This document shows positions 520-63,847 of a DNA stretch of 64,000 bases, piece after piece. Source of the stretch: Candidatus Saccharimonadota bacterium (GTDB taxonomy: Bacteria > Patescibacteriota > Saccharimonadia > Saccharimonadales > CAIOMD01); contig DALYDK010000004.1 of assembly GCA_031973215.1 (NCBI GenBank), positions 12,019-76,018 on the forward strand. The letters run 5' to 3'. The notes beneath the pieces were generated by a model. The model was not told the origin of the DNA, ran no database searches, and was given only the letters and a program-made list of their open reading frames with translations. Position 1 is the first letter of the stretch. Every line of letters begins with the position of its first letter. The position numbers and the translations under genes are program-made.

Positions 520-527
520 CATAAGCA

Positions 528-4883: not shown

Positions 4884-4923
4884 GGCGGTATGGTAAAATA
4901 AACCATAAGGATTAAAAATACAA

Positions 4924-10971: not shown

Positions 10972-12369
10972 TTATATTTTAACAGATTGGAGTCTCTTTC
11001 TGAGGCCAATGTAAAATATTAATATAGAACCATAAATAAGTAGCATAGAAGTAAAGCCAACGGAAACAAGTTTGTAAGCACCTGGAACTGTTGCTAGCTT
11101 TTCAGTAATTAATATCATAAGGTTCAATAGCAGCCTGGCTGGAATTGCCAAATACGCTGATAGGTTTGGCAAAATAGCTCCAATCAATCCTGCTATAAAT
11201 GAAAAAAACATAGCTAAAGGAACAAGTGGCACGATGATTATATTTGCTATTATTCCAATTAAAGAAACTCTGCCAAAAATCATCATAATTAGTGGAGTTG
11301 TCATAACCTGAGCCGAAAATGATTCGACGGCCATAGATGCAAAACCGTTATTATTTTTTATTCTAAACAAACGAATTAATATGGGTGCAATAATTAAAAT
11401 TCCAACAAAGGCCAAGAAAGACAGGTACCAACCAATATCGGACCAAATATAGTATGGGTTATAAAAAGCCGTTATCGATGCTACCAATAGAATGAGTAGA
11501 GCTGGTCTAATTTTTCTTCCAAAATACCAAGCAGTCAAGCTTAAAAATGAAACAAGCGATGCTCTAACTATTGATGGAGAAAATCCACTAATTAATATAA
11601 AACCGTATATTAGCACTAAAGAAATAAATAACAATTGAAACCTAGAAAGCTTAGAGCCAATTCGTCTGACAAAATTAACAATTATCGTTAAGTTATATCC
11701 ACTAACAGCAACAATATGGACAAGCCCGACAATTGTTAAAGCTTCCATTAAATATTCCGGCAACAAGCTTCTTTGACCTACTAAAATGCCTATAGCAAAG
11801 CTTGCAGCCGGTTCCGGCAAAGAAGTTTCAATGCCAATAATAAACTTAGTTCGAATATTATCAATTAGCGAATTGGTAGTAGCAATTGCATTAATATCAG
11901 CATAAGACATTGAAGCCTGTCTACTGCCGACACTCGGATATAGTTTTCCAGTAGCCTCAACTAGGTCGTAACGATAAACCGCCGGGGAACCAAATCCCTT
12001 AATTTTTACTTTTCCGGGGATGCTTTTGCCGTCAACTTTAACTGAACCAACAGTAAATTCCAGTTGAGAACTATCAGAATAAAAACCATCCTCAGAAGCA
12101 ATGCCGGTGATTGTTACTTTTTTATAGTAAAAATCTTGATAACTAAGGTTTTGCTGTTGTAGTAAACCTCCCCTGTACAGACCACCCGCAAAAGCCGCTA
12201 AACAAACGGTAAATATAAATGCTGTTTTAAATCTGTAAAAAATTACAGCAAGCAGTGAAAATATAAGGAAATAATATATACTAATAGGTTCAAAATATTT
12301 AGATATAAAAAGACCAAAAAGTAAAAAAATACAGATAAAAATTAATGTGTTTGTTTTTGTCAGAGCCAT
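10972..12369 (-). CDS. comEC: ComEC/Rec2 family competence membrane protein (no metallo-beta-lactamase domain)
   Basis: Polytopic membrane protein with an OB-like periplasmic insert and the Competence-domain pattern (HIVAVSGYNL, SGFSPSIVRA). Confidence 0.8.
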   Translation of the reverse strand: MALTKTNTLIFICIFLLFGLFISKYFEPISIYYFLIFSLLAVIFYRFKTAFIFTVCLAAFAGGLYRGGLLQQQNLSYQDFYYKKVTITGIASEDGFYSDSSQLEFTVGSVKVDGKSIPGKVKIKGFGSPAVYRYDLVEATGKLYPSVGSRQASMSYADINAIATTNSLIDNIRTKFIIGIETSLPEPAASFAIGILVGQRSLLPEYLMEALTIVGLVHIVAVSGYNLTIIVNFVRRIGSKLSRFQLLFISLVLIYGFILISGFSPSIVRASLVSFLSLTAWYFGRKIRPALLILLVASITAFYNPYYIWSDIGWYLSFLAFVGILIIAPILIRLFRIKNNNGFASMAVESFSAQVMTTPLIMMIFGRVSLIGIIANIIIVPLVPLAMFFSFIAGLIGAILPNLSAYLAIPARLLLNLMILITEKLATVPGAYKLVSVGFTSMLLIYGSILIFYIGLRKRLQSVKI

Positions 12370-12463
12370 ATCTAGTTATTACTAAATATAAACTAAAGAA
12401 GGCAACATTTACAATTTTACTTGTTCGTGATATATTAACCCCTGTTGTTTTAATAAAACATAT

Positions 12464-12540
12464 GGGCCCATAGCTCAGCCGGTTAGAGCACCTGCCTTTT
12501 AAGCAGGGTGTCGTGGGTTCGAGCCCCACTGGGCCCTCCA
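12464..12540 (+). tRNA. tRNA-Lys (anticodon TTT), CCA encoded
   Basis: Hand-folded cloverleaf: GGGCCCA/TGGGCCC acceptor, GCTC/GAGC D stem, CCTGC-CTTTTAA-GCAGG anticodon arm, GTGGG-TTCGAGC-CCCAC T arm. 77 nt. Confidence 0.92.
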
Positions 12541-12548
12541 ATAAAAAA

Positions 12549-12573
12549 GTTCCAGTACTTCTGGAGCTTTTTT
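12549..12573. terminator. bidirectional rho-independent terminator
   Basis: GTTCCAG-TACTT-CTGGAGC hairpin flanked by an A-run and a T-run, between tRNA-Lys (+) and the convergent gene ending at 12572 (-). Confidence 0.6.
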
Positions 12574-13069
12574 ATTTGTGCTTTTTATCGTGCTTAGAAA
12601 TATGAACGCTTTTATGAAAAACAAAATAAAAAAGCGAGCCTAGTAATCCTGTAACTACTGCTACGCCTATAAAATTATCTAAAGTCTGATACAAACTAAG
12701 ATTTTCGATTGTGTTTTTTTGATCATATGAAAGCTTTGAAACTACTAAAAATGTAGCCACGAGCGATGCAGACGCCCCTACGACTATATTAAATATTAAG
12801 TCTTTAGGCTTAGATGTTTTTCTGTACAGAAAAAGCACCAGTGCTGAACCAAAAATTAATATAAATATTTGAACAATGCTGTACATTGGTAGAGACAAAC
12901 CGGTGAATATTGAATTTAAAAATTTTGTCGTTTCAACAGATACTTGTTTTGACGCCAACTCACCTGCAATCAGCAATAAATATCCATAAACCGCGTTCGA
13001 CCTAAATGCCAGCGGTACAAATAAAAACAAAAATGCCGATAAACCTAAAATAACGTATAAACTTATCAT
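12572..13069 (-). CDS. hypothetical polytopic membrane protein
   Basis: Four or five hydrophobic helices; no recognisable family. Confidence 0.5.
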   Translation of the reverse strand: MISLYVILGLSAFLFLFVPLAFRSNAVYGYLLLIAGELASKQVSVETTKFLNSIFTGLSLPMYSIVQIFILIFGSALVLFLYRKTSKPKDLIFNIVVGASASLVATFLVVSKLSYDQKNTIENLSLYQTLDNFIGVAVVTGLLGSLFYFVFHKSVHISKHDKKHK

Positions 13070-13093
13070 TTATAAATTAAGCATAACATTTAT

Positions 13094-13570
13094 TTATTGA
13101 ATATCTTGAAATATATCACCCATTTTTATTCCATATTTTTTTACTACACCTGAATTTAGTTCCAATATATACTTAGATTTTTGTTCTATTTGAAAGATCT
13201 CTGGATATGATTCTGGACTCAAGCCTTCCTTTATACCAACTACCTTTGCGTTATCGTCTAGCCAAATTACATCAATTGAAAAATTCATATCTTTCATCCA
13301 AATTTTCCAATTACCAGATGTATCATATACAAACAACATTCCTTGGTTGGATGGTAAAAACTTACTTCCAGAAAGACCCTTTTCTTTGTCTTTTTCGGAA
13401 GTTAATTTTTCAATAAATATTATATTACCGTTAACAGTAATACTATCAAGTTGATGACCGCCTTTATACAAAGCAATCAGCAATAAAATAGACAAACCAA
13501 AAAACAAACTAAAAATAATGTATCTTTTTTTAGGCACCAATTTTGTCTTTTTTATGTCTTTGTTTGGCAT
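13094..13570 (-). CDS. DUF192 domain protein (signal-anchored)
   Basis: GMLFVY...W.KDM.FSIDVIWLD pattern of DUF192. Confidence 0.7.
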   Translation of the reverse strand: MPNKDIKKTKLVPKKRYIIFSLFFGLSILLLIALYKGGHQLDSITVNGNIIFIEKLTSEKDKEKGLSGSKFLPSNQGMLFVYDTSGNWKIWMKDMNFSIDVIWLDDNAKVVGIKEGLSPESYPEIFQIEQKSKYILELNSGVVKKYGIKMGDIFQDIQ

Positions 13571-14432
13571 TTCTTTCTATGTATTCAATTATTTTCGTTG
13601 CTACATCCCTGTTTGTTATTTTCTCTATTCCAAACCCGGGGCTGGAATTAACCTCAAGCACCAGCGGACCTCTTGAACTTCTCATCATATCTACGCCACA
13701 CACAGGCAAATTCATTGATTTCGCCGCTCGGACTGCTGTCTTAATTTCTTCGTCTGTTAGCTTAACGGCCTTGCCCTCACCACCCTGGTGTAAATTTGAT
13801 CTGAAATCATCATCTAGGCTCTGCCTTTTGTAACTGGCAACGACTCTTTTACCTACTACAAATGCTCTGATGTCCGTTCCTGCAGATTCTTTTATAAATT
13901 CTTGAACTAAAAAGTTCACACCTTCAACATAAAACGCCTGCATTACAGCTTGGGCTGCTTTTTTGGTTTCTGCTAATACAACACCATTTCCGTGAGTACC
14001 CCTAGCAACTTTAATAATTAGCGGGGTACCGCCGGCTTGCTCTATAACATCATCAAAATCTGCAGTATCTCTTGCAAACACAGTCTTAGGAACTCCTACT
14101 CCTGCTTTTGCTAGTAGTTGGTAGGCACGCAGTTTATCGCGTGAACGGTTTATAGCTATTGAACTAGCTGTAGTATATGTGCCCTGCATTTCAAATTGCC
14201 TAACAACTGCTGTACCATATTTTGTATAGCTTTGAGCAATTCTAGGTATCATGACATCAAATTTTTCTAACGGCTCTCCCTTGTAGTGCACAACCGGGTT
14301 ATTTTTTTCTACGCCAATATAACATTTAGCGTAGTTAATAATTTTGACTTCATGCCCTCTTTCTAGAGCAACTTCTTTAAGCCTCTTAGTGGAATAGTTC
14401 TTTGATCCTTTTGATAAAATTGCAATCTTCAT
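13530..14432 (-). CDS. rimK: RimK family ATP-grasp alpha-L-glutamate ligase
   Basis: MKIAILS...YSTKRL, ATP-grasp core (PLIIK...GTHG.GV, EFI.E..G.DIRAFVVG), LEVNSSPG. Confidence 0.9.
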   Translation of the reverse strand: MKIAILSKGSKNYSTKRLKEVALERGHEVKIINYAKCYIGVEKNNPVVHYKGEPLEKFDVMIPRIAQSYTKYGTAVVRQFEMQGTYTTASSIAINRSRDKLRAYQLLAKAGVGVPKTVFARDTADFDDVIEQAGGTPLIIKVARGTHGNGVVLAETKKAAQAVMQAFYVEGVNFLVQEFIKESAGTDIRAFVVGKRVVASYKRQSLDDDFRSNLHQGGEGKAVKLTDEEIKTAVRAAKSMNLPVCGVDMMRSSRGPLVLEVNSSPGFGIEKITNRDVATKIIEYIERNAKQRHKKDKIGA

Positions 14433-14441
14433 AATATATCC

Positions 14442-14834
14442 TTAATCTGATGGGTCTACCAGAAATTTTCCTCTTAAAAATTTTCTGCCAATAATTACTT
14501 CGTAGTTCATACTAGATCTGTCGGTGAGAGAGATTTTAATTTTCCTTTTACTGCCTTTTATTCTGACAAAAGTATTAATAAAAAACCTCTGCTGCTTTTC
14601 ACCATTAGAACTTTTAACATATTTAACTGAAAAGTTATCATTCCAAATAGTTTTTTTACTGTTAAATGGCTTAAAGCTAAGGTGATACTTCCCGTGCCTG
14701 TTAATGATTTTAATATTAGATGCATGGAGCGCACCGCTATCTGCGCCGGTATCAATTTTGGCCAGCACATATTCATCGCTAAGTTCTGGGAACTTAACTT
14801 TTTCATAAATTTTAAGCGTAGGTAATTTATTCAT
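14442..14834 (-). CDS. retropepsin-like aspartic protease (PF05618 / RimB-like partner of RimK)
   Basis: AKIDTGADSGALHA active-site-like motif. Lies immediately upstream of rimK. Confidence 0.7.
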   Translation of the reverse strand: MNKLPTLKIYEKVKFPELSDEYVLAKIDTGADSGALHASNIKIINRHGKYHLSFKPFNSKKTIWNDNFSVKYVKSSNGEKQQRFFINTFVRIKGSKRKIKISLTDRSSMNYEVIIGRKFLRGKFLVDPSD

Positions 14835-27858: not shown

Positions 27859-27935
27859 TGGTAGCAGGGGCGAGAATTGAACTCGCGACCTCAGGCTTAT
27901 GAGTCCTGCGCTCTAACCATCTGAGCTACCCTGCC
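27859..27935 (-). tRNA. tRNA with CAT anticodon (elongator Met or lysidine-modified Ile2; undecided), CCA encoded
   Basis: Hand-folded, 77 nt: GGCAGGG/CCCTGCT acceptor (G1-U72 wobble), CAGGA-CTCATAA-GCCTG anticodon arm, GCGAG-TTCAATT-CTCGC T arm. Confidence 0.88.
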
Positions 27936-27990
27936 TTAAGGTTTAATACAGACGATATCATACCAAAATATAATCTGTTTTACCAAATTT

Positions 27991-28017
27991 AAAAGCCTCC
28001 CAACAATCTAGGAGGCT
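27991..28017 (-). terminator. rho-independent terminator
   Basis: AGCCTCC / GGAGGCT hairpin; on the minus strand it is followed by TTTT. Confidence 0.5.
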
Positions 28018-28051
28018 CCTAAAAGAGTTTACCTACGCAGCTTAGGAATTT

Positions 28052-28132
28052 TTAAGCAAGCATTTGATCTATGCTTAAAAATCTTGGATCACTTGTAGGA
28101 GAAAACTCATAAGCAAGAGATATATCGCTCAT
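28052..28132 (-). CDS. candidate unannotated 26-aa small ORF (MSDISLAYEFSPTSDPRFLSIDQMLA)
   Basis: ATG preceded by AAGGA at 8-nt spacing and followed by a terminator. Below the ORF-track size cut-off. Confidence 0.25.
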   Translation of the reverse strand: MSDISLAYEFSPTSDPRFLSIDQMLA

Positions 28133-28227
28133 AAATTTTTCCTTTTTTTTAACTTTTTTGCTTTTTAGGCAATACCGTTATACTATACCATTTTCGTATT
28201 TTTGTCAAGTTAATAATGTTGTAAAAA

Positions 28228-29280
28228 TCAACCCAGTAGAGTCTTAAGTTGATGAATTAACTTCTTGATATCTTGAAAGTTATTAACCAAGTAATTAGAT
28301 CTTAGCAGCGCTTCATCTATAGCGATTTCTGCCGATACTACAGTAATTAGTTCAGAGCTTGCTAGAACTGTCGTTAAGCCACCGTCTAGGCAAATTGCTT
28401 GCCTGTTTTTAATATTCAGGATTTTACTAAATCTTAAAATATCGGCACTATTTACAGATATAAAACTCATTAATGGATAGTCAGCCTCCATTATAGACTT
28501 GTTACTTTTTTGCTCGAAATATTTTTTATCTATATGGGCCATACCTGGTGTAATAGCAATTAATCTTTTTGCAGTAGATTCATCTGTACAAAAAATTAAG
28601 TTTTTTCCCATCTGATGACTAATTATTCTAATCATTTCCTTAACTGAGTCAATTGGGGCGGGAAAATTAACAATTACAGTGTCTATTAACTTGGGTGAAA
28701 TATAGTCAGTTGACTCATTTATGATGATTTCATTATTTTTTAAATTTTTCTGAATTTTCTTAAGTTTTCTTCCCAATTTCTGATGATGCTTTTCCATACT
28801 ATTTAGATATGTATCACTGCCCGTTGCAACCACCACCCCAACGGCATGGCCGTACGTTACGCTAGATCCAGCAAATGCCATGTTTTTTAAACTTAAAATA
28901 TTGTCATATTTAGCATGAGTTGTGTTTGAATTTTTATAAACGGCGACCTCAGATCCATCTAGAACAGATTGATTTACAGACAAATTATCAACGGCAATTA
29001 ACCTAATATCGGCTGGAACCACTTTATTTTTTTCTAATAGTACTATGTCACCAAGAGCTAATAAATTATTCTTTGTTTGTGTTCGCTTTCCGTCTCTGAT
29101 GACAAATGAGCTTAATAAACTCCACACTATATCGGGAAAATAACTAATATTGTTACCACCTAGCTTTGCCACTCTAAGAGCGGCTTCGGCAGAAGATAAG
29201 CCAGATTTGTCATTTGTTATAAAAAATTTCAATAGATCTGGTGCTGAAATTGATTGCCACTGCTTATTAAATCCGGCCAT
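28228..29280 (-). CDS. soluble, TM-less P-type ATPase-like protein with degenerate catalytic motifs
   Basis: Cation_ATPase_N-like LSSAEAALRVAKLGGN. A-domain-like VIRDGK...GDIVLLE...VPADIRL...SVLDGSE (TGES replaced by DGSE). No DKTGT motif and no TM helices. Confidence 0.6.
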   Translation of the reverse strand: MAGFNKQWQSISAPDLLKFFITNDKSGLSSAEAALRVAKLGGNNISYFPDIVWSLLSSFVIRDGKRTQTKNNLLALGDIVLLEKNKVVPADIRLIAVDNLSVNQSVLDGSEVAVYKNSNTTHAKYDNILSLKNMAFAGSSVTYGHAVGVVVATGSDTYLNSMEKHHQKLGRKLKKIQKNLKNNEIIINESTDYISPKLIDTVIVNFPAPIDSVKEMIRIISHQMGKNLIFCTDESTAKRLIAITPGMAHIDKKYFEQKSNKSIMEADYPLMSFISVNSADILRFSKILNIKNRQAICLDGGLTTVLASSELITVVSAEIAIDEALLRSNYLVNNFQDIKKLIHQLKTLLG

Positions 29281-29369
29281 ATGAATGATTCCTATAAGTT
29301 AATGTTATTATCATTGCCCGTTGATAGCAATTTAATAGATTGTCAAAATATCGTATAATTATTAACAAC

Positions 29370-30755
29370 ATGGGTGGAAAAAATAAAAAACCAATTTCAT
29401 TTGACTATGACTTAGTTGTCATTGGGGCCGGTACCGCAGGGAGTGTAGCTGCAAACCTGGCTGCAAATCATGCTAAAAAAGTAGCCATTATAGAAAGTAA
29501 TAAAATCGGAGGAGAGCAACTCTGGTCAACTACTATACCTACTAAATGGCTTATGGAATCATTAAAATTTTATCAAAAAGCTAAAAAAGCCAATTCTCAA
29601 GGCTTAGATATAAGCGTTTCGCCGATTAGTATAGACAAAATAAAACATTATTTAAGAAAAACTCAAAACAAAGCATCTGGGGCAGAAACAAATGTATTTA
29701 AAGATGAAAACATAAAAACATACAATGGTAACGCAGATTTCATAGACAAATACCATATTAGTATTAATGGTAAAAAAATATCATCAAAATACTTTCTGAT
29801 TGCCCCAGGGGCTTCTCCAGACAATTCTATTGCCAAAAAGTTTAATGTAACCAATTTTCTTACATATAGAGACCTAGCTGAGCTTAATTTCAGTGGCAAT
29901 AGTTTTTGTTTTATAGGAGCCGGGTCAGTCGCGTATGAATATTCGCAAATACTTACAATGCTAGGATTTAACGTGCATGTAATAGAAAAAAATAATCATA
30001 TATTGCCCAAGTCCGATAACGAAGTAAGCGATATATCTGAAGATATCCTAATTAAACATTCAGTTAAACTACACACTGCTAGTTTTGTCGAAGATATTAA
30101 ACAAAGCAACAGTAAATCAATTATTCATTTTATTAAAAACCAAAGAAGGTACCGTTTGGCTGTAGATAACTTAGTGTTGGCATCCGGTAAAATGCCTAAT
30201 GTAAAAAACTTAGGCCTAGAAAATGCTAATGTTCATTTTGACGAAAAAGGAATTAAAACTAATAGGAAAATGCAAACATCACAAAAAAACATATTTGCGG
30301 CAGGTGATGTCGTAGGTTCCGAGTCGGGATACGAAGCAATATATGATGCACAAATTGCAGTTCATAATATGTATTTTAGAAAAAAACTAAAAAAATCTAG
30401 AAAAGCTATTCCGAAAGTTGTTTATGGCTCTACAGAAATTGCAACCGTTGGTGTTAGCGAATTGCAGCTAAAACTATCGGGTAAAGTATACCAATCCTCC
30501 ATAGCGCCCGCTGGTATAACAGCAAGATCTCTTTACGGTCAATATGAACTTGGATTTGTAAAAATACTTGCTAACCACAAAGGCATAGTTGTTGGCGCAA
30601 GTGTAGTTGGAGAAAACGCTACAGAGCTTATTAATATATTGTCAGTTGCAATTAACAACAATATGCAAGCTTGCGACTTAGCAAAAACCGTTTATTCAAG
30701 TCCTAGCTGGTCAGAATCTATCAAAATCGCAGCAAGCAAAATTTATTGCTTATAA
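29370..30755 (+). CDS. FAD/NAD(P)-binding pyridine nucleotide-disulfide oxidoreductase homologue lacking the redox-active cysteines
   Basis: DLVVIGAGTAGS, FIGAGSVAYEY and AAGDV dinucleotide motifs. The GGxCxxxGCxPSK site reads GGEQLWSTTIPTK. The C-terminal HPxxSE reads SPSWSE. Start taken at ATG 29370 (the track uses TTG 29340). Confidence 0.8.
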   Translation: MGGKNKKPISFDYDLVVIGAGTAGSVAANLAANHAKKVAIIESNKIGGEQLWSTTIPTKWLMESLKFYQKAKKANSQGLDISVSPISIDKIKHYLRKTQNKASGAETNVFKDENIKTYNGNADFIDKYHISINGKKISSKYFLIAPGASPDNSIAKKFNVTNFLTYRDLAELNFSGNSFCFIGAGSVAYEYSQILTMLGFNVHVIEKNNHILPKSDNEVSDISEDILIKHSVKLHTASFVEDIKQSNSKSIIHFIKNQRRYRLAVDNLVLASGKMPNVKNLGLENANVHFDEKGIKTNRKMQTSQKNIFAAGDVVGSESGYEAIYDAQIAVHNMYFRKKLKKSRKAIPKVVYGSTEIATVGVSELQLKLSGKVYQSSIAPAGITARSLYGQYELGFVKILANHKGIVVGASVVGENATELINILSVAINNNMQACDLAKTVYSSPSWSESIKIAASKIYCL

Positions 30756-30777
30756 AAAACTGCCATGAATATGGCAG
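30754..30777 (-). terminator. rho-independent terminator (copy 1 of a duplicated hairpin)
   Basis: CTGCCAT-GAAT-ATGGCAG; on the minus strand it is followed by TTTTTT. Overlaps the stop codon of the plus-strand oxidoreductase gene. Confidence 0.65.
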
Positions 30778-30791
30778 TTTAATTGTGCATC

Positions 30792-56431: not shown

Positions 56432-57202
56432 TTATTTTTTTTCGGCATTCAGTAGCTGTTCAACAGTAACAAATTTGTAGCCATCGGCTTTTAGATTGTT
56501 AATTATCGGCTCTATGGCATTTCTAGTTGCTACTTTATCATTCATGGCATGAAGAATAATTATAGATCCAGGGCTTACACTATTTGTTACATTACTAATA
56601 ATTGCTTCTGTATTCCCATAACTATCTCCATAAGATTCCGGCTCTATGTTCCACATTATTGTCTTCATGCCAATTTTATTAACATAGTATGGCAGGTAAA
56701 CAAGCTTTTTGCCGTATGGTGGACGGAACATAATCTCACCTTTATAACCAGCTTTTCTTATTGCACTGTTAGTTTTGTTAACTTCTGACTGTATTTTATT
56801 TGGCAATGTAAATACAAGCCTTGGATGTGTGTATGAATGGTTTCCAATTTGATGCCCAGCCTCAATAAGTTTTTTGGTTTGCGATAGATTTTTATCTATT
56901 GAAGATCCCATTAAAAAGAATGTTGCCTTTACTTCGTTTCGACCAAGAATATCAATTATTTCTTCGGTTGCGCCGGCACTAGGACCGTCGTCAAAAGTTA
57001 GCGCAACAATTTTTTCGTTAGTTTGTACCCTATCTGTTAGGCCCCCAAATAACTGAAAAGTTCGGGCGTTAATTAGAATATATAATGAATAAGCCACAAT
57101 TAATATGACAATCACAACTAAAACCTGCAACCATACTTTTTTGGAAACCATATTTATTTGTTGATGTTTGTTTGAGCTCATAGCCTCATTATACAAAAAC
57201 AA
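56432..57202 (-). CDS. polysaccharide deacetylase (NodB homology domain), membrane-anchored
   Basis: LTFDDGP, GNHSYTHP and LHAMN motifs. The start could instead be ATG 57181, which lies 7 nt after a TATAAT (a possible leaderless mRNA). Confidence 0.85.
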   Translation of the reverse strand: MFLYNEAMSSNKHQQINMVSKKVWLQVLVVIVILIVAYSLYILINARTFQLFGGLTDRVQTNEKIVALTFDDGPSAGATEEIIDILGRNEVKATFFLMGSSIDKNLSQTKKLIEAGHQIGNHSYTHPRLVFTLPNKIQSEVNKTNSAIRKAGYKGEIMFRPPYGKKLVYLPYYVNKIGMKTIMWNIEPESYGDSYGNTEAIISNVTNSVSPGSIIILHAMNDKVATRNAIEPIINNLKADGYKFVTVEQLLNAEKK

Positions 57203-57238
57203 TTGAGGATTATTTATCCTTATTAATAACTATTATCA

Positions 57239-57256
57239 TGGCTCGGGAGACAGGAT
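57239..57256 (-). repeat. 18-nt copy of the tRNA-Asn 3' end (positions 59-76)
   Basis: ATCCTGTCTCCCGAGCCA versus tRNA-Asn ATCCAGTCTCCCGAGCCA (62945-62962): 17/18, same orientation, 5.7 kb away. Confidence 0.85.
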
Positions 57257-57384
57257 GCCTTTGGTGCGCTTCAAGCTTACTCGAAACAAGTTTCTGCGTG
57301 AGCTTGCCTGGCGCCCGAACCGCGAGGCTATGGTATTTTCTTTCAGAAAATCCCAATCGCTGTTTAGAATTCAACCCCAGAAAT
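57257..57384 (-). repeat. G+C-rich structured tRNA-trailing unit, copy B (body)
   Basis: 57280-57300 is 18/21 identical to 30839-30859 of copy A. GGCGCCCGAACC (57310-57321) is the reverse complement of 31756-31767 in copy C, so it has the same sense relative to the tRNA. AU-rich hairpin AUUUUCU-GAA-AGAAAAU. Confidence 0.7.
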
Positions 57385-57417
57385 GAAAAAACCGCCGGCA
57401 AATGCCGACGGATTTTT
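57385..57417. terminator. terminator hairpin following the tRNA 3' fragment
   Basis: CCGCCGGCA / TGCCGACGG hairpin (one mismatch) flanked by an A-run and a T-run. On the minus strand it is followed by TTTTTT. Confidence 0.65.
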
Positions 57418-57419
57418 CA

Positions 57420-57444
57420 TGGCTCCCGCAACCAGATTCGAACC
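57420..57444 (-). pseudogene. tRNA 3' fragment (T loop to CCA) of a tRNA-Asn-like gene
   Basis: GGTTCGAATCTGGTTGCGGGAGCCA is 19/25 identical to the tRNA-Asn 3' end, with discriminator G and A72 as in tRNA-Asn. No matching 5' half lies upstream. Confidence 0.65.
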
Positions 57445-57523
57445 AAGTGTCTCTATCACCTAATTTTTGGCTCACTTCATACTAGCTTACATCTGTTATT
57501 TATCGTAATTATTATTCGAATTT

Positions 57524-57775
57524 CTAAGAAATACCAAGTACAAGATCTACTTTTTTTCTATCAAAACCTAGTATCTTTTCTTCAGAACCATCTTCTGTTT
57601 CGATAATTGTAAAAGGAACGCCCAGCTGACCACTTTTTTCAAAAAGTTCTTGAGCTACCGATTGATCTATATCTGCATGTTTCTCTTCGTACGCAATATC
57701 TTTGCTTTGTAGATAACTCTTAAGCATTTTGCAGTATGCGCACGTCGCTGTGCTGTAAATTGTAATCTTTGACAT
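57524..57775 (-). CDS. NrdH/glutaredoxin-like small redoxin
   Basis: ITIYSTATCAYCKMLK CxxC motif and GVPFT. Confidence 0.8.
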   Translation of the reverse strand: MSKITIYSTATCAYCKMLKSYLQSKDIAYEEKHADIDQSVAQELFEKSGQLGVPFTIIETEDGSEEKILGFDRKKVDLVLGIS

Positions 57776-57777
57776 AA

Positions 57778-58284
57778 CTACTCCTTATTATTAGGTTCCA
57801 AATAACTACTAAACGACCGTATATAATGACATGTATAACCTCCCGGGTTTTCTTGCAAGTAATCTTGGTGGTAGGGTTCTGCTGGCCAGAATTTTGTAAA
57901 TGGCTCAAGAGTTGTAACAACCGGATTAGCCCAATTCCCCGAATCATTCACTAGCTTAATCATTGCTTCCGCATCTTTGCGCTCTGATTCGTCCTGGTAG
58001 AATATGGCTGATCGATATGCAGAACCCACATCGTTACCCTGCCTATCGAGCGTAGTTGGGTCATGGACTCGAAAAAAATAATCTAGTAATTTCTTGTACG
58101 ATGTTTTTGTGTCGTCGTATGTAATCTCAAGTCCTTCAGCGTGACCTGGATGATTACGATAATCAGGATTATCGTTAGAGCCACCCGTGTAGCCTACCTC
58201 AGTATCAATTACGCCCATTTGTTCTCGAACAAGGTCTTCGAGACCCCAAAAGCAACCACCAGCAAAATATGCTTTTTTAATCAT
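57778..58284 (-). CDS. msrA: peptide-methionine (S)-S-oxide reductase MsrA
   Basis: [10 protein letters not shown] active site. Start taken at ATG 58284 (8-nt overlap with msrB); the track's 5' extension is unlikely. Confidence 0.9.
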
Positions 58285-58660
58285 TATTGCCAACTTTCTT
58301 TGTATCAAAATCAAGAGATAGCGAGTTAATACAGTAGCGCATACCTGTCGTATCAGTAGGACCGTCATTGAATATGTGGCCTAAGTGACCACCGCAAGCA
58401 GCACATACCGCTTCTACCCGTACCATCCCGTGTGAGCTATCGGTAACTTCTTTAACGGCACCAGGTAACGCATCGTCAAAACTAGGCCAACCCGAACCTG
58501 AATCAAACTTTGTATCAGACGAAAAGAGTTGTGCATGACAGTTTGCGCAATTGTACATACCCGACTCTTTGTTATTTAGATACTTACCTGTAAATGGTGC
58601 CTCAGTAGCTTTATTGTGAAGTACGGCTTTTTGTTCATTTGTTAAATGGTCATTTTCCAT
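58277..58660 (-). CDS. msrB: peptide-methionine (R)-S-oxide reductase MsrB
   Basis: Two CxxC zinc motifs and RYCINS catalytic motif. Confidence 0.9.
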
Positions 58661-58683
58661 GCTGCTTTGCTCCTTCTTTAAGT

Positions 58684-60402
58684 TTAACTACCAAATGTAA
58701 ATGCGTTAACCGTAACGCCTGTCGGGAATGTTAAAGTTAACTTTTTACCAGTCATGTACTTATCTAAATTCACAATTTTATATAAACGAGCGCCATTAAT
58801 GCTAACTTGATTTTTCGAATTAACATCAGCCCCACCAGGAGAGCTTTGACCGTCAACTGACACTCCAACTAGCGCTCCTGGAGGCCCACTCATTACAAGA
58901 TAAACTTCTTTTCCTGAAAAGTTAAAACTAAGTTTTGATTCGTTAGAAAGACTTTGGCTAGACTCATCATTAATTTGCCATTGCCCACCTAGTGACCACT
59001 CATTCGCCTTTAATGTATTGGCTAATGTGTAACTGGCGGGTTGATTGGCTACGAATTGGTCTGTGTTGGCAAAGCGTTCGGCGCGTTCGTAGCCTAAATA
59101 TGTTTCCGGGGTTTGTCCGCGAGCGCTTGAGTTTATGCTACGGTCAACTTCAATCTTATTCGTTACTGTCTGTCCAGATTCTTTAAGTAATGCCTGAATG
59201 GTTTCTTCAGTTTCTGTATAATCACCCTCGCCAAAATGCGTGTACCTAACCTGACCATCTTTATCTATCAAATACTTTGCTGGCCAGAATCGATTTTCAT
59301 AGGCTTGCCATGTAGCGAAATCGTTGTCTAGGGCTACAGGATACTTAATATTTGCGTCTTTAACTGCATCTTGTACATTCTTTGTAACTTTTTCAAATCC
59401 AAATTCTGGGGCATGAACACCAATTATTACTAGCCCGTCATTATTGTATTTATCGTACCAAGCATTTAAATATGGTTGCGTACGCTGGCAGTTAATACAA
59501 GAATATGTCCAAAAATCTACTAAGACGACTTTCCCTTTCAGACTTTCAATTGTTTGTGGGTCGCTGTTAATCCAAGCGGCAATGTTCTTAAGCTCAGGTG
59601 CATCATATGCTGTGACATTAAACTTTTGCTTGTTGACTGAACTATTGCTATTAGATTTGGGAGAGTTATTGTTTTCTGGAACCAGCTTTTCTTCCAGTAG
59701 CTTTATACTCAAAAAGTCTTTTTCAACCAGGTATGTTTGCACTTTTTTGTCCAAACCAGTTGCGACAAAAATACCAACAATGATGAATAGAATAGCTATA
59801 ATTCTTTGAAACCATCCTTTTGGATCGCTGGCCCATTTTATTCGTGCGAGTAGTCTACGACCAAGTAAAGCAATAGCTAATAATGCAGTGGCAACACCGA
59901 GTACGTAGAAAGTTAGATAAAACATTCCCAGTAATGCGCTTGAGGGCAGTACTGTAGCTATAACCCAAGCATAGGTTGGACTACAGCTACTAAAAATTGG
60001 CCCAAGTGCGGCACCAATTAGAATTGCCGATATCACGCCATTCTCTTGCTTGTAGGCTTTGCCGAGTAGGCCTTGCGATCTATGCTCGATACCGAGCTTA
60101 CCAATTACTTGCGCCCATAGGTCCGGGAACAACATAAAGAATCCAAGAATTATTACTAGAACGCCCGAGCCAATAGCCCAAACTCTTGGATCAATTCCAA
60201 TGAGTGCCGTCGAGGCTTTCAGCAGGATTGTAAAGAGTATTAAGGAGATGACCAAGCTAGCAGTAATTATGTAGGGCCGCCATTTATCCTTTTTATCTCC
60301 AGCCAAACTACCACCAAGGATAATTGGCAGTAGCGGAAGTACGCACGGGGCTAGTGCAGTTAGTAGCCCCGCGACGTATGATAGGAATGCTGTAAGCAGC
60401 AT
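58684..60402 (-). CDS. DipZ-like fusion: CcdA/DsbD transmembrane electron-transfer domain plus thioredoxin-like (TlpA/ResA-type) domain plus C-terminal beta-sandwich
   Basis: [10 protein letters not shown] CcdA motif, 6-8 TM helices, then [16 protein letters not shown] redoxin motif. Confidence 0.85.
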
Positions 60403-60409
60403 ATGGCTA

Positions 60410-60958
60410 CTATGACTTTATGCCAGCAACGGCTTTATCTAATGATGTTGCAGACCATTGTGCTGTTTCGTTGCCACTATTATCTACTTGAACAAATGTG
60501 TACTGAGTTGTGACACCGTATTTTTGGCGTAAGTCAGTTGAGCTATCAAAATCTGTTTTAATAAGCGTTACGCCTGCTGGAATTTTAGACATATCGGCAT
60601 TTATTTCTTTATCGATACCTTGGCATATTGGGCACCAGCTTGCATGGAAGAAGTATACCTTCTTTGAATCAGCATATTTGCTCGGGTCTTTATTATAGTC
60701 AGCAAGTGTTACGTATGAACCTTGCTTGGCCATAGCGTCTTCTTTCGTCATGGCGTCACCTTCTTTTGCCATCTTGTCCTTTTCCATGGCTGCTGCTTCG
60801 TCTTTTTTCATCATAGCTTCGTCGGTAGCCTTTTTCTCCATGGCCATCTTTTCTTGCTCTTTTTTATCGTTCTGATTATTGCTGTAGGCCAATGCACCAC
60901 CACCGACTAAAAATAGTCCGACGACTATGCTTACGATTACTAATGCTTTTTTGTTCAT
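60410..60958 (-). CDS. signal-anchored thioredoxin-like protein with Met/Lys/Glu/Ala-rich linker
   Basis: FFHASWCPICQ CxxC motif. ATG 60958 is preceded by GAGGG; the track begins at GTG 60970. Confidence 0.75.
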   Translation of the reverse strand: MNKKALVIVSIVVGLFLVGGGALAYSNNQNDKKEQEKMAMEKKATDEAMMKKDEAAAMEKDKMAKEGDAMTKEDAMAKQGSYVTLADYNKDPSKYADSKKVYFFHASWCPICQGIDKEINADMSKIPAGVTLIKTDFDSSTDLRQKYGVTTQYTFVQVDNSGNETAQWSATSLDKAVAGIKS

Positions 60959-61037
60959 GATTACCCTCACTTACGTTTTATTGTTGATCTAAGTATAATT
61001 AAGCGATACACACAATGTCAAGTTGACTTAACAATTA

Positions 61038-61403
61038 CTATTTACCATCTTTGGTTCGCTGGACGTTAATTTTTGTAGCTATCATTGCCAGAAGTGCTAT
61101 GGGAATTGCAGGATCTAGATTGTGATGAAGGCTTTGAACTATAAGTGCGGTAATAAGTACAAGCGAGCCAACAGTATATGCGGAACGACTTGCTAAAGCT
61201 TGGTTCTGCATTTCTCGTTCATCGTCGGGTTGTTCACGCCAAAACAGAACTAAGAATGTCGCAATAAGACCGAGTACAGCTGCGAGGATTAACATCTGCA
61301 CGCTAGTGGGCATAACGAAGGTTTTTGGGGCAACAGCCAACAATGCAATGATAGCTAAGCCAAGAAGCAGGATGACATCAAGTAATTGTTTATATTTTTT
61401 CAT
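61038..61403 (-). CDS. hypothetical 4-TM membrane protein
   Basis: 14-nt overlap with the upstream HTH gene. Confidence 0.5.
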   Translation of the reverse strand: MKKYKQLLDVILLLGLAIIALLAVAPKTFVMPTSVQMLILAAVLGLIATFLVLFWREQPDDEREMQNQALASRSAYTVGSLVLITALIVQSLHHNLDPAIPIALLAMIATKINVQRTKDGK

Positions 61404-61614
61404 ATTGAAAGATCTCCTCCACCTTCTTGTCTAGTATAGCGGCAATCCTTAGCGCAAGCAGTACACTCGGTACATAGTTACCTTTTTCTATAGCGATTAT
61501 TGTTTGACGTGTGGCTTGTACTTTGTCGGCGAGATCATCTTGGGTCATCTTTAAAGAAGTACGTGCCTCGCGTACAGTATTCACCACCGTGTGTTCTTTA
61601 TCTCGTATAAACAA
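61390..61614 (-). CDS. XRE family helix-turn-helix transcriptional regulator
   Basis: LKMTQDDLADKVQATRQTIIAIEKGNYVPS HTH_3 pattern. The exact start is uncertain (TTG 61614 or GTG downstream). Confidence 0.8.
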   Translation of the reverse strand: MFIRDKEHTVVNTVREARTSLKMTQDDLADKVQATRQTIIAIEKGNYVPSVLLALRIAAILDKKVEEIFQYEKI

Positions 61615-61723
61615 CTATTCTCTCCTAGATGTATAGTTAACCATACATATAGTAACACGCCATCAGGGAAAGCAGCATAAATAGCCACCAAATGGTGGCT
61701 ATTTATGCGGGTTCGATCAATTA

Positions 61724-62014
61724 CTACATCTTAGCTAGTTCGTAAACGACGACGCTGGTAATCATAGGGTTGGTCTTAGCTAGTGCAATCGCTTCTTCTT
61801 TGCTCTCAGCACTAATGATGGAATAGCCAGTTAAGGCGTCCATTCCCATTTCAAGTGCCGTAACATCAGTCTTTGAGACTTCGCTACCATCACTGAATGG
61901 ATTGCCTCCGTCGATCATTTTGTCACCGACTTCTTCGAACCATTTCATCCAAGCCTGACCAATTTCTGGCGTTGGTTGCATAAAACCTTTGTATAAAAAT
62001 ATGAACTTCTTCAT
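61724..62014 (-). CDS. YCII/DGPF-like small protein
   Basis: 96-aa alpha+beta protein (FIFLY...GY.II.A.S.EEA..LAK..P); weak family call. Confidence 0.5.
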   Translation of the reverse strand: MKKFIFLYKGFMQPTPEIGQAWMKWFEEVGDKMIDGGNPFSDGSEVSKTDVTALEMGMDALTGYSIISAESKEEAIALAKTNPMITSVVVYELAKM

Positions 62015-62382
62015 TTCTTCGATCCCTTCTTTAGTTTATTCTCGCCCTTCTGAATACTGGCGACGTAGTTCTCCAGTTTTTCTTGATTGTTCCCCCAATA
62101 AGCATGATATTGAGTTATCCAATTTTGCATCAACAATAGTGCTGTTCTGTCTAGTGCTAGGAAGTTGGTTTTGCCAACTTTCTTGCGCAGGACTAAACTT
62201 GCTTGCTCGAGCACTCTGATGTGCCTATGTATAGCTGGCAAAGACAACTTTTGTTGATCTGCTAACTGAGCAATAGATGCTGGGTGTAAGCCAAGTGTAT
62301 ACATAATTTCTCGCCTGTGTTTGTTGGCGAGGGCGGTAAACACTTGGTCTAGTGACTCGGTATCATTAATCTTAGTTAACAT
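62011..62382 (-). CDS. ArsR family transcriptional regulator
   Basis: ALANKHRREIMYTL...SIAQLA....SLPAIHRHIRVLE winged-helix pattern. Confidence 0.8.
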   Translation of the reverse strand: MLTKINDTESLDQVFTALANKHRREIMYTLGLHPASIAQLADQQKLSLPAIHRHIRVLEQASLVLRKKVGKTNFLALDRTALLLMQNWITQYHAYWGNNQEKLENYVASIQKGENKLKKGSKK

Positions 62383-62427
62383 TAATGTTAAGTGTACTCT
62401 ATTTATAGTGAACTGTATAATCTAAAT

Positions 62428-62724
62428 ATGGAGATCAATTTCAAGAGCAAACTATGGGAATGGTCGGGCAAAGGTGCGTGGTGTTTCGTTTCCTTACCGA
62501 AAGAATACTATGACGAAATCAAGGTAATAAGTAGCTCGCCAAAGAGGGGTTTTGGATCTGTAAAAATTGAAGCGAGTGTTGGAAAAACAGTATGGAAAAC
62601 ATCGATATTTCCAGACACAAAATCAGGTACTTACTTGCTCCCAGTTAAGAAAGAGATTAGAAAAGCTGAAAATCTTAGTATTGGGAGTGTCATAGATATG
62701 AAAGTAAGATTGATCGATTATTAA
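62428..62724 (+). CDS. DUF1905 domain protein
   Basis: W.F..LPKE......GFGSVKI.A.VG...W.TS.FP pattern. ATG 62428 lies 6 nt after TATAAT (62416-62421), suggesting a leaderless mRNA; the track starts at GTG 62392. Confidence 0.7.
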   Translation: MEINFKSKLWEWSGKGAWCFVSLPKEYYDEIKVISSSPKRGFGSVKIEASVGKTVWKTSIFPDTKSGTYLLPVKKEIRKAENLSIGSVIDMKVRLIDY

Positions 62725-62731
62725 TAGCGAC

Positions 62732-62750
62732 AGGTCTAGGGAACAGGTCT
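62732..62750. repeat. AGGTCT-N7-AGGTCT site, copy 1
   Basis: AGGTCTAGGGAACAGGTCT; its partner lies 174 bp away. Confidence 0.6.
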
Positions 62751-62796
62751 GATTTTGGAGTGCTTGCTCCTTCAGGACGGGAGGGGCTGGGTTAGA

Positions 62797-62875
62797 ACTA
62801 ATTTACAGGGGTAAAATGAAAGAACCGCCATTTCTGACGGTTCCAACATTTGTAACTTACGAACTGTAAATTAGT
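62797..62875. other. 12-bp inverted repeat enclosing a hairpin
   Basis: ACTAATTTACAG (62797-62808) and CTGTAAATTAGT (62864-62875) enclose GAACCG/CGGTTC (62822-62843). On the minus strand the inner hairpin plus GGCGGTTCTTTCATTT resembles the terminator of copy B. Confidence 0.55.
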
Positions 62876-62905
62876 ATTTCTCTGACCAAAGAGAGAAGTT
62901 ATTGT

Positions 62906-62924
62906 AGGTCTAGGAACTAGGTCT
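62906..62924. repeat. AGGTCT-N7-AGGTCT site, copy 2
   Basis: AGGTCTAGGAACTAGGTCT, 20 nt from the tRNA-Asn 3' end. Confidence 0.6.
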
Positions 62925-62944
62925 ACGTTTTTCTCTGCTTGGTC

Positions 62945-63019
62945 TGGCTCGGGAGACTGGATTCGAACCAGCGACCTAGTGGTTAACAGCCACCCGCTCT
63001 ACCGCTGAGCTACTCCCGA
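62945..63019 (-). tRNA. tRNA-Asn (anticodon GTT), CCA encoded
   Basis: Hand-folded, 75 nt: TCGGGAG/CTCCCGA acceptor, GGTGG-CTGTTAA-CCACT anticodon arm, GCTGG-TTCGAAT-CCAGT T arm, discriminator G. Confidence 0.9.
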
Positions 63020-63187
63020 TTAATCCAAGCATAAAACTTGGAAAATAAATTATAAGGTGCGTCAGGTGAGACCTGAATTACAGGTGATAATTATAAATAC
63101 AAATATATATGTCGTCAATTATTTGTTATATGTCAATCTAGTATTAGTAGCCAAAACTATATACCATATCTAAAAAGGAGGTTTTAA

Positions 63188-63847
63188 ATGAAAGATTTAT
63201 TAATTGGCATTGCTGCCATGGGCATAGGTACGCTACTGTGCTTTGCTGGCTATAAAGTAGCCAGAATATTAATTCCTATATGGGGATTTTTTGCAGGCTT
63301 TTTTATGGGCGCAGCAGGTGTATCCGATGCTTTAAATAATCAATTCTTAGGTACAACGCTTGGAATTGTAGTTGGGTTAATTCTAGGTTTAGTTTTTGGT
63401 TTGTTTGCATACTTCTTCTTCAGCCTAGCAATTGTTCTAATGGGCGCATCTTTTGGATACTGGCTAGGCACCGGCTTAGTAACAATGCTAGGTTTTGACA
63501 AAGGTTTTCTATCAGCCACGGTTGGAATTTCTATAGGCGTTGTTTTTGCAATATTGGCAATTATTATTAACGCACCAAAGTACTATTTAATTGTTACAAC
63601 CGCTTTTGCGGGCGCTGTATCTGTATTTGTTGGATTCTTAATACTTATAAACAAAATTAATCTAGACAGCCTTAGCTATATTGACGGCAACGACATAAAG
63701 GTGTCTGTTCTATGGAGCATTTTGGCTGCTCTACTAGGTATTTTTGGATTAATCTTCCAGGTACTAAATACCAGAAATCAAGAAATAGAAAAATGGGGAA
63801 CGCCTTTCGAAAAACCAGTAAACACCACCCCCTCAACCCCAGCCTAG
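63188..63847 (+). CDS. polytopic membrane protein (DUF4203-like)
   Basis: AAAGGAGG RBS; six or seven Gly/Phe-rich TM helices. Confidence 0.6.
   Translation: MKDLLIGIAAMGIGTLLCFAGYKVARILIPIWGFFAGFFMGAAGVSDALNNQFLGTTLGIVVGLILGLVFGLFAYFFFSLAIVLMGASFGYWLGTGLVTMLGFDKGFLSATVGISIGVVFAILAIIINAPKYYLIVTTAFAGAVSVFVGFLILINKINLDSLSYIDGNDIKVSVLWSILAALLGIFGLIFQVLNTRNQEIEKWGTPFEKPVNTTPSTPA

Follow-up and report, generated by a model that had tools for sequence, protein, structure and literature searches.

We analyzed a stretch of 64,000 nt from a Candidatus Saccharimonadota bacterium (hereafter the window; coordinates count from its first letter), in which a block of methionine-sulfoxide-repair and thioredoxin-type genes adjoins the 3' end of a tRNA-Asn gene. 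The segment between positions 57420 and 62944 is probably a non-autonomous passenger cassette, which sits between two sites resembling the bacterial attachment site (attB) of a site-specific recombinase and is co-mobilized by flanking recombinase elements in an integration hot spot at tRNA-Asn. The cassette has sharp boundaries, is nearly identical between species and is foreign to its host in composition, and the insertion points of elements encoding a large serine recombinase (LSR) coincide with its two ends. It would be this recombinase that moves the cassette, and the route would be joint excision with the flanking elements. The related loci used for comparison, labelled L001 to L043, are all metagenome contigs or metagenome-assembled genomes (MAGs).

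Boundaries of the cassette and its copies in other genomes

The exact 572-aa DipZ-type protein of the block was found in 36 blocks of the sequence collection; 20 contigs were read, and, judged on the ten places shown, the protein occurs in at least four different neighbourhoods. Those of the related loci that lie in species-representative genomes carry the titles of Candidatus Saccharibacteria or Saccharimonadales MAGs. When the window was compared with the related contigs by BLAST, the DNA identity was 98.8-100% from 57420 up to the tRNA and then stopped abruptly. The features at the two ends are the following.

62945-63019, minus strand: tRNA-Asn(GTT) (ARAGORN; Rfam tRNA, 70.9 bits)
62945-62969, minus strand: last 25 nt of tRNA-Asn, GGTTCGAATCCAGTCTCCCGAGCCA, the left, B-type arm of the putative docking site
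62726-62944, minus strand: module D, the ~219-nt non-coding, tRNA-proximal end of the cassette, which begins directly after the CCA of the tRNA
57420-57513, minus strand: conserved distal end of the cassette, 94 nt, 80-86% conserved on other cassettes
57420-57444, minus strand: frag1, a mimic of the tRNA 3' end forming the last 25 nt of the cassette (sense GGTTCGAATCTGGTTGCGGGAGCCA)
57257-57419, minus strand: module B, of trailer type, carrying a rho-independent-like terminator at 57392-57411
57239-57256, minus strand: frag2, an 18-nt copy (17/18) of the 3' end of the host's own tRNA-Asn, matching the host acceptor stem

The tRNA-Asn genes in front of the block differ between hosts, and each of them has a self-consistent acceptor stem.

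Window: acceptor 5' strand TCGGGAG, 75/75
L001/L004: acceptor 5' strand TCCGGCG, 68/75 identical to the window tRNA
L005: acceptor 5' strand TCCCGGG, 54/75 identical to the window tRNA

From the first base past CCA (GACCAAGCAGAGAAAAACG...), the sequence is identical in all three tRNA contexts. Since the tRNA varies between hosts while the DNA past its CCA stays the same, the tRNA-Asn is taken to be native to the host. Beyond frag1, each context continues with its own tRNA-trailer-like sequence. Eight of the ten island products are 100% identical across hosts whose tRNA-Asn differ at 7 to 21 of 75 positions (the XRE regulator is 98.6% identical, and the ArsR regulator was aligned over 111 of its 123 residues), and all ten genes are intact. 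As near-identical DNA follows clearly different tRNA-Asn genes and then gives way to host-specific sequence, we regard the block as a real and recent transfer between species and not as a product of decay. The original prediction, made from the letters of the window alone, had proposed an island acquired horizontally at the 3' end of tRNA-Asn, which the foreign composition and the ~100% identity behind different tRNA-Asn genes bear out. It had also allowed that the genes might turn out to occupy the same locus in all relatives; instead, the block stands behind different tRNA-Asn genes in different species. Its description of the island as decayed, on the other hand, is at odds with the ten intact genes and their near-identical products in divergent hosts.

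The composition of the window is not uniform. The interval from 57239 to 62962, to which we refer as the island, has a G+C content of 0.412 versus 0.3645 in the rest of the window, and is the 5.7-kb stretch of highest G+C, the next reaching 0.398. The G+C content at third codon positions (GC3) is 0.37 in the ten island genes versus 0.286 (sd 0.027, maximum 0.34) in the 41 other long open reading frames (ORFs) of the window, which were assumed to be genes (Mann-Whitney p = 5e-5). The island stays at 0.41 in every host, while the flanks are at 0.36 in the window and at 0.44-0.49 in L001 and L005. Its composition is therefore foreign to the host; the estimate made by eye, mid-40s against mid-30s in percent, was overstated, the actual figures being 41% and 36%. 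Judged as a tRNA-linked genomic island, the block has a G+C content of 0.4085 versus 0.364. A second stretch of ~40% G+C lies at 1-6000 of the window, where the maximum outside the island (0.398) belongs to the 5.7-kb stretch starting at 701.

The homology to all other contexts halts exactly at 57420. Because the copies elsewhere begin right after the CCA of the tRNA and end at frag1, the mobile unit is 57420-62944 (5,525 bp), with its true left boundary at 57420 and not at 57239. The positions of the junctions are uniform to the nucleotide in all contexts, and the insertion point is the extreme 3' end of tRNA-Asn, the junctions having only GAGCCA in common. The distance from GTTCG to CCA in frag1 is 24 nt, equal to that in the real tRNA, and frag1 together with the host-specific sequence behind it constitutes the second attB-like site.

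The block had been predicted to be bounded by tRNA-Asn and a direct repeat of its 3' end. Both are real: the 18-nt repeat at 57239-57256 is identical to the tRNA 3' end (62945-62962) at 17 of 18 positions and is the sole match to the tRNA end with up to four mismatches on either strand of the window, for which our own arithmetic gives a chance expectation of ~1e-4. The repeat, however, sits 181 bp outside the shared unit. A further tRNA-derived repeat noted at 57420-57444 could be verified (20 of 26 positions match the tRNA 3' end over 57420-57445), and it is this one that closes the unit. No classical direct repeat marks the two ends of the unit, as GAGCCA is all that they share and frag1 departs from the acceptor stem of the host. 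The related terminators reported for both ends are also present, as hairpins of the type GGCGGTT(T/C)TTTCATTT on the tRNA strand, one in each non-coding module. We read the 181 bp at 57239-57419, which lie outside the 5.5-kb cassette, as separate from it and probably older, left behind when the hot spot was used before. Frag2 is present in all contigs that share the flanks of the window, and the first 45 nt of module B resemble the sequence after tRNA-Asn and frag1 in the MAG L011. Thus, the tandem accretion suggested earlier was right in spirit and has left its signs, but the roles of the two repeats have to be swapped.

The upstream side of tRNA-Asn (window 63188 onward; L017, L029, L031, and L033) is syntenic across distant Saccharibacteria, with genes for LexA-like, Wzy_C, Bac_transf and glycosyltransferase proteins, and the downstream side is variable. 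For this reason, the tRNA-Asn locus can be described as a conserved anchor with a flexible arm.

Serine recombinase elements at the cassette junctions

In L002, a 521-aa protein is encoded directly after frag1, and its reading frame crosses the junction. It matches Resolvase (PF00239, 1.9e-11) and Recombinase (PF07508, 1.4e-16); the zinc-ribbon match (PF13408) scored 20.8 bits, under the cut-off of 25.3, but is precomputed for most homologues. The protein has the architecture of an LSR; searches of PDB sequences with the protein retrieved nothing meaningful. At E <= 1e-20, the family counts over 1,100 homologues, among which we inspected seven lineages that are 55-100% identical to one another or to the L002 protein. 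In L029/30, L031/32, L033-36, and L040/41, the 3' end of the recombinase gene runs into a true tRNA-Asn, GAGCCA of the tRNA being followed directly by A(T/G)TT(G/T)(A/G)AC, and in L002, L027, and L042/43 the gene runs into cassette ends of the frag1 type. The recombinase reading frame spans the attachment junction in every element inspected.

The elements (e.g., L031:1256-11506 and L033:464-11509) represent an abundant integrative family of ~8-11 kb in Patescibacteria, one of them sitting in a MAG labelled Nomurabacteria. Their core consists of an HTH_17/MerR-like protein, a protein of ~290-350 aa, a SpoVG-like protein, a protein of ~372 aa and the serine recombinase. The ~372-aa protein meets the Pfam threshold for G2P / Phage_CRI, a rolling-circle initiator, in L042 and is DnaD_N-like in L002/L029. 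The cargo varies and includes type III restriction-modification (R-M), SNF2/PLD with MmeI-like R-M, a pair of OLD nuclease and UvrD (Gabija-like), and detoxification enzymes.

At their far ends, the elements carry GTTCGCAA-N15-GAGCCA in L031, L033, and L042 and a divergent version in L040, followed by the trailer of the host. From GTTCG to the terminal A of CCA, these arms measure 29 nt versus 24 nt in the arms of the tRNA and frag1. We read this offset of 5 bp as the difference between the phage-type attachment site (attP) and attB, the tRNA end and frag1 being B-type and the GTTCGCAA arms P-type. Structural work on the LI integrase by Rutherford et al. in 2013 reportedly found that an outward shift of the outer motif by 5 bp separates the attP from the attB half-sites of LSRs. 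A further article describes the positioning of DBD2 (DNA-binding domain 2) as differing between attP and attB (PMC12286644). The identity at the crossover is short, the junctions sharing only GAGCCA(A).

In L001 and L002, module D is immediately preceded by relic P arms, which on this reading puts it at the B' position of the right-hand attachment site (attR). The order in L002 is an element ending in Fic and a P arm, then the cassette from D through XRE to NrdH and frag1, and then the LSR element. The cassette thus stands in tandem with autonomous elements on both sides in L002, and on the distal side in L027. These two loci are the intermediates that co-mobilization predicts, and a further one is given by L001, where the P arm adjoins another D module, the head of a CsoR/P-type ATPase cassette.

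Altogether, we propose the following course of events, in which the recombinase would be supplied in trans. The cassette would be flanked by two attB-like sites, the 3' end of tRNA-Asn joined to D and frag1 joined to the trailer, and LSR elements would integrate at both. Recombination between the left-hand site (attL) of the proximal element and the attR of the distal element would then release a composite circle with the cassette and one attP, which could integrate in another cell or species, either at its tRNA-Asn or at a frag1 site. Each LSR element would later excise alone and leave clean tRNA-D and frag1-trailer junctions, such as those in the window, and integration beside an existing cassette would yield internal frag1-D junctions. 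The empty site predicted in the host would be CTCCCGAGCCA joined directly to TGAAAAATCCGTCGGC.

Several points weigh against this course of events. Neither an excised circle nor a composite circle was observed in the related loci, and tblastn with the recombinase from elsewhere detected no gene of this family within the 64-kb window. No empty site was seen in the same species, contigs with the exact flanking proteins either entering the island or breaking within the tRNA; for the deacetylase of the left flank, the 249-aa version starting at ATG was used in this look-up, as the version starting at TTG matched nothing. A symmetric motif was sought in the right-hand half-sites (D, trailers, and the 3' end of the recombinase gene), and no clear common motif emerged; an inverted TTCGAACC occurs in the trailer of L033 alone and is not a general feature. 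The crossover dinucleotide can be placed only within GAGCCA(A). LSR chemistry does not duplicate the target sequence and so does not account for how frag1 and frag2, the tRNA-like ends, arose. One may speculate that frag1 derives from a P arm by a deletion of 5 nt, because TGCGGGAGCCA in frag1 resembles the end of the P arm, GTGCGAGCCA, and is closer to it than to any tRNA-Asn acceptor. In addition, metagenome assembly can chimerically join flanks across a shared repeat of 5.5 kb. In the viral collection, the 16-mer of the tRNA-recombinase junction gave 17 matches, all by chance and with neither recombinase nor tRNA, a protein-pattern search with the L033 recombinase returned nothing, a pattern for the start of D matched nothing, and no episomal attP form was recovered.

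We weighed other explanations against co-mobilization by the LSR elements. It is rather unlikely that the cassette is the cis substrate of another recombinase encoded elsewhere, in which case the frag1-D junction would be an attP of ~315 bp, the AGACCT repeats serving as its arm sites, and the LSR elements would merely share the target. Long conserved ends (~94 + 219 nt) are typical of an arm-type attP, D contains two direct-repeat pairs, and frag1-D junctions occur in several contigs. Nevertheless, the ~40 related loci surveyed contained no candidate enzyme, and the spacing in frag1 is that of an attB. In L001 and L002 a P arm adjoins D directly, as a recombinase gene adjoins frag1 in three lineages, at the same nucleotide, for which a single enzyme is the simpler account. 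We consider it very unlikely that natural transformation and homologous recombination in the flanks (tRNA-Asn on one side, a D-like sequence or trailer on the other) moved the block with no site-specific step. Past frag1, neither the window nor the L001 context shows homology, and the breakpoints agree to the nucleotide across all contexts even though the tRNAs differ at 7-21 positions; still, the D-like copy after frag1 in L005 and L009, 84-89% identical, would be able to support homologous recombination, and Saccharibacteria are said, by Wang et al. in 2023, to be naturally competent.

The classical account, in which an element with a tyrosine integrase duplicated the 18 nt, lost the integrase and decayed, so that the unit would be 57239-62962, is one to which we give hardly any credence. 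The 17/18 repeat is real, non-random and matched to the host's own acceptor stem, the composition is foreign, and there is no recombinase inside, as originally noted (by Pfam, the ten ORFs include no recombinase). However, other contexts share DNA from 57420 only, every host has its own native tRNA, intact as far as CCA, the junctions share just GAGCCA, and the genes are intact and nearly identical across species. No Phage_integrase domain is listed for the called genes of the related loci retrieved, nor for the ten island ORFs, and no tyrosine integrase appears in the gene lists of those loci. The classical account is already contradicted for the 5.5-kb unit, while the origin of the 181-bp remnant could still be described in this way. 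An assembly artefact, in which a shared repeat was joined to unrelated flanks or variants were collapsed into a consensus, is the explanation to which we assign the least probability of all. It would suit a data set made up of metagenome contigs and MAGs, with contigs that often break at island edges and a run of N near the tRNA in L011, but each junction type is present as contiguous sequence, and the same pairings of flanks recur across independent samples and assemblers (L001/L004/L007; L003/L006/L008; L005/L009). Allelic differences, e.g., the single-nucleotide polymorphism of L001 type in frag1, also track with the context.

Beyond the window, the proposed co-mobilization by LSR elements leads to a wider reading, which we hold tentatively and rate slightly below an even chance. 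The 3' end of tRNA-Asn would be a docking site throughout Saccharibacteria, and possibly in other Patescibacteria, at which one LSR family inserts itself and shuttles recombinase-less cassettes between species. The cassettes observed include redox repair, copper resistance and regulators, and the mimic of the tRNA end together with D would regenerate docking sites.

Gene content and organization of the cassettes

The cassette carries ten genes and a seam between two sub-cassettes, termed A and B.

62428-62724, plus strand: DUF1905 protein, 98 aa, sub-cassette A (PF08922, E = 6.6e-25; also 98 aa in related contigs)
62011-62382, minus strand: ArsR/SmtB-family regulator, 123 aa, sub-cassette A (Pfam HTH_20/HTH_5; NCBIfam HTH_metalloreg at 4.6e-13, under the curated cut-off)
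61724-62014, minus strand: 96-aa protein, sub-cassette A, adjoining ArsR also in L011 and L027
61615-61723, minus strand: seam of sub-cassettes A and B, a terminator hairpin followed by the XRE promoter region
61390-61614, minus strand: XRE-family helix-turn-helix regulator, 74 aa, heading sub-cassette B (Pfam HTH_3, 3.6e-11)
61038-61403, minus strand: membrane protein paired with XRE, 121 aa (sub-threshold Pfam matches; precomputed PF09946, DUF2178-like, marked weak)
60410-60958, minus strand: thioredoxin-fold protein, 182 aa (Pfam Thioredoxin, 4.3e-8, residues 93-175)
58684-60402, minus strand: DipZ-type fusion, 572 aa (Pfam DsbD_TM + Redoxin + Thioredoxin_10)
58277-58660, minus strand: MsrB, 127 aa (Pfam SelR, 2.9e-50)
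57778-58284, minus strand: MsrA, 168 aa (Pfam PMSR, 2.9e-57)
57524-57775, minus strand: glutaredoxin-like redoxin, 83 aa, with a CAYC motif, YruB/NrdH-like (Pfam Glutaredoxin, 1.4e-11; NCBIfam GlrX_YruB at 1.7e-17 and GlrX_NrdH at 2.8e-8, both under their cut-offs)

Nine of the ten gene assignments made in the original prediction agree with these results, and the YCII-like label of the 96-aa protein does not, as this protein has no family match in Pfam, NCBIfam or PDB sequences. The pairing of an XRE regulator with a membrane partner holds in so far as XRE is recognized by HTH_3, the partner being weakly DUF2178-like, and the pair is kept in all relatives. MsrA is called as 168 aa in every related contig, a 196-aa ORF being an upstream extension. 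In the DipZ-type fusion, residues 4-211 match DsbD_TM/DsbD_2, the CcdA-type transmembrane electron transporter, with the CcdA cysteines present; the redoxin motif is CINC, and Thioredoxin_10 forms the C-terminal domain. All the parts of a DipZ protein (CcdA transmembrane part, CxxC redoxin, and Thioredoxin_10) are thus recognized by Pfam, and NCBI names the homologues DipZ. In a copy of the island in L017 (L017:2178-3799), which co-occurs in the same sample as L003, the transmembrane part of DipZ lacks 1 bp at two places, one G of a GG doublet each time. Together, these deletions split the gene into ORFs of 450 and 90 aa, which is either a genuine inactivation or a sequencing error.

The 182-aa thioredoxin, by inspection of its sequence, combines a hydrophobic anchor or signal at the N terminus with a linker rich in Met and the active site WCPIC, and is probably extracytoplasmic. 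MsrA, MsrB and the glutaredoxin-like protein lack an N-terminal hydrophobic segment, as judged by eye on the translations without a prediction tool, and are probably cytoplasmic. The families point to two branches: a cytoplasmic one, in which MsrA and MsrB with the glutaredoxin-like reductant probably repair methionine sulfoxide, and a membrane one, in which the DipZ-type fusion would send electrons outwards to act with the anchored Met-rich thioredoxin. The redox genes are probably regulated by the XRE-type regulator at their head. This physiological role is deduced from the families. The likeness proposed earlier to the CcdA-Etrx-MsrAB systems therefore extends to the DipZ-like transporter and the thioredoxin, which is predicted to be anchored, and not to the Msr branch.

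The homologues of DipZ form a continuum of identity from 100 to 57%, and the named members are mostly of Saccharibacteria; the outliers are one MAG labelled Propionibacteriaceae (59%) and one labelled Limnocylindrales (69%). The redox genes of the cassette thus seem to be long-term residents of the phylum that move inside it. An actinobacterial origin of DipZ, i.e., from the hosts on which these bacteria live, was considered and is unsupported by this continuum.

The window island is a fusion of two cassettes. At the seam, the terminator hairpin (61670-61713) is an inverted repeat with arms of 21 nt that are 90% complementary, and the homology to L002, L028, and L011 ends at 61613-61660, where D directly precedes XRE in those loci. 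There, module D stands immediately before the unit running from XRE through the glutaredoxin to frag1. The frag1-D unit that separates the two sub-cassettes elsewhere is absent from the seam. In L027, sub-cassette A forms a mini-cassette of 1.4 kb in which D, DUF1905, ArsR and the homologue of the 96-aa protein follow tRNA-Asn in this order, frag1 coming directly after the 96-aa homologue. Junctions of frag1 with D between cassettes were found in L005, L009, L011, L026, and L028.

Module D contains an imperfect hairpin of 14 bp and, at 62821-62844, a hairpin resembling a terminator; AGACCT(A/G) occurs in it as two pairs of direct repeats. Nine copies from different contexts, which are preceded by the tRNA, the end of frag1 or the P arm of a recombinase element, align with a mean column identity of 78%. 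D is conserved far beyond what would be expected of a neutral tRNA trailer, and has an internal stretch resembling a tRNA T arm (GTTCGAACCCAGCC). RNAalifold on the nine copies returned hairpins with a covariation term of ~zero, and D as a structured RNA is accordingly unsupported; the first hairpin has one compensatory change (C-G to G-C) in L001, which an inverted-repeat DNA site would fit equally. An Rfam scan of 57000-63200 detected nothing besides the tRNA. A protein-binding site, trailer processing and a terminator are candidate roles of D.

Cassettes of other content occur in the same arrays. Copper-type modules, which comprise genes for CsoR, DUF305, MauE-like or lactonase-like proteins and a P-type ATPase, lie at L001:15309-21000 and at L037:6218-8120; the former is headed by its own, further copy of D, and the latter is directly upstream of an XRE-DipZ module. 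The DipZ module of L037 is more distant in sequence; it follows two arm relics in an array, ~8 kb downstream of tRNA-Asn. At L011:7672-7742, tRNA-Asn is followed by 22 nt of native trailer, NNNNNNNNNN, frag1, and then D, the cassette, frag1 and the same trailer again; this could be a mix of the empty site with circle or tandem forms, or a mis-scaffolding. L012 has, at 12053-14556, four copies of another tRNA-3'-like fragment (GTTCGAATCCCTCATCCCCAGCCA and degenerate versions) within 2.5 kb, which follow a diverged XRE-DipZ-glutaredoxin cassette, and no tRNA gene in its 21.7-kb locus; the copies may mark very small cassettes, or scars, in an array. Elsewhere in the window, three tRNA-Met(CAT) genes are grouped within 4 kb (27859-31661; two on the minus and one on the plus strand), and tRNA-Lys is at 12464-12540.

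Significance and comparison with known systems

Saccharibacteria and other Patescibacteria have very small genomes (~0.7-1 Mb), live on other bacteria and are genetically hard to manipulate. To our knowledge, gene exchange in these bacteria is poorly known. Here, an intact cassette for the repair of oxidative damage has moved very recently between clearly different species of Saccharibacteria, landing at one precise nucleotide, and the data point to a specific and abundant recombinase family as the agent. If the link to the recombinase is confirmed, the main locus of the flexible genome of this group would be defined, the spread of cargo with no recombinase would be explained, and the recombinase with its site of ~50 bp at tRNA-Asn would provide a tool for site-specific integration. 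If, in addition, tRNA-Asn proves to be a general docking site, this would amount to an exchange of cassettes similar to that of the staphylococcal cassette chromosome (SCC) or of integrons, which could underlie a large part of the flexible genome; with it, a native integrase/attB pair would become available for engineering these bacteria. The cargo suggests that oxidant tolerance is a traded, niche-dependent trait in these epibionts.

As to the cargo, both the pneumococcal CcdA-Etrx-MsrAB2 system and the mycobacterial DipZ (Rv2874 type) resemble the present one in combining a CcdA-type conduit, a surface thioredoxin (here predicted) and Msr enzymes in one cluster. In contrast to the pneumococcal system, MsrA and MsrB are separate here and have, by eye, no N-terminal hydrophobic segment, so that the Msr branch is probably cytoplasmic. 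The pneumococcal comparison is therefore valid for the electron conduit only, and not for an exported Msr.

As to the mode of movement, non-autonomous units flanked by att sites, the cis-mobilizable elements (CIMEs), are reported, from the work of Pavlovic, Bellanger, Guedon and colleagues, to lie beside autonomous integrative and conjugative elements (ICEs) at the same site, co-excision having been proposed for them. The accretion-mobilization of streptococcal CIMEs is similar to the present case in that a non-autonomous unit with att-type sites stands in tandem with an autonomous element. CIMEs and ICEs differ in their tyrosine integrases, longer identical repeats and conjugation, whereas no conjugation genes were seen here. 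The tycheposons of Prochlorococcus are comparable in that flexible genes lie beside tRNA genes of a streamlined genome, together with integration and replication modules and with niche or defence cargo. Successive integrations of tycheposons displace older elements outwards and leave partial tRNAs and degenerate elements, and 910 of the 937 integrase-carrying elements use tyrosine recombinases, the remainder using a large serine recombinase (10.1101/2020.12.28.424599). Their integration leaves direct repeats of partial tRNAs, in contrast to GAGCCA alone being shared here.

A further close likeness is in the target and layout of the SCC islands (SCCmec; ACME, the mobile element for arginine catabolism; and pseudo-SCC, psiSCC), for which CcrAB/CcrC act at the 3' end of rlmH/orfX: there as here, an LSR targets the 3' end of a conserved gene and tandem arrays result. 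Among psiSCC and composite islands, recombinase-less cargo units are bounded by copies of the integration site, each adding a docking site (10.1101/336396, PMC6243372). The present cassette likewise consists of cargo with no recombinase of its own, has both ends at sites used by autonomous elements, is arranged in tandem with them and brings a new docking site with each unit, as psiSCC and CIME passengers do. Unlike in SCC, the target here is the end of a tRNA gene and not a protein-coding gene, the hosts are Patescibacteria, a single recombinase gene reads across the junction, and the elements carry a replication gene of the rolling-circle type with defence cargo. In open-access papers and preprints, we found no description of such a system for Saccharibacteria or Patescibacteria in connection with a serine recombinase, tRNA-Asn or a genomic island. 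What sets the present system apart from those already known is the 3' end of a tRNA as the target of an LSR, cassettes bounded by mimics of the tRNA end and module D, and the group of hosts in which they occur.

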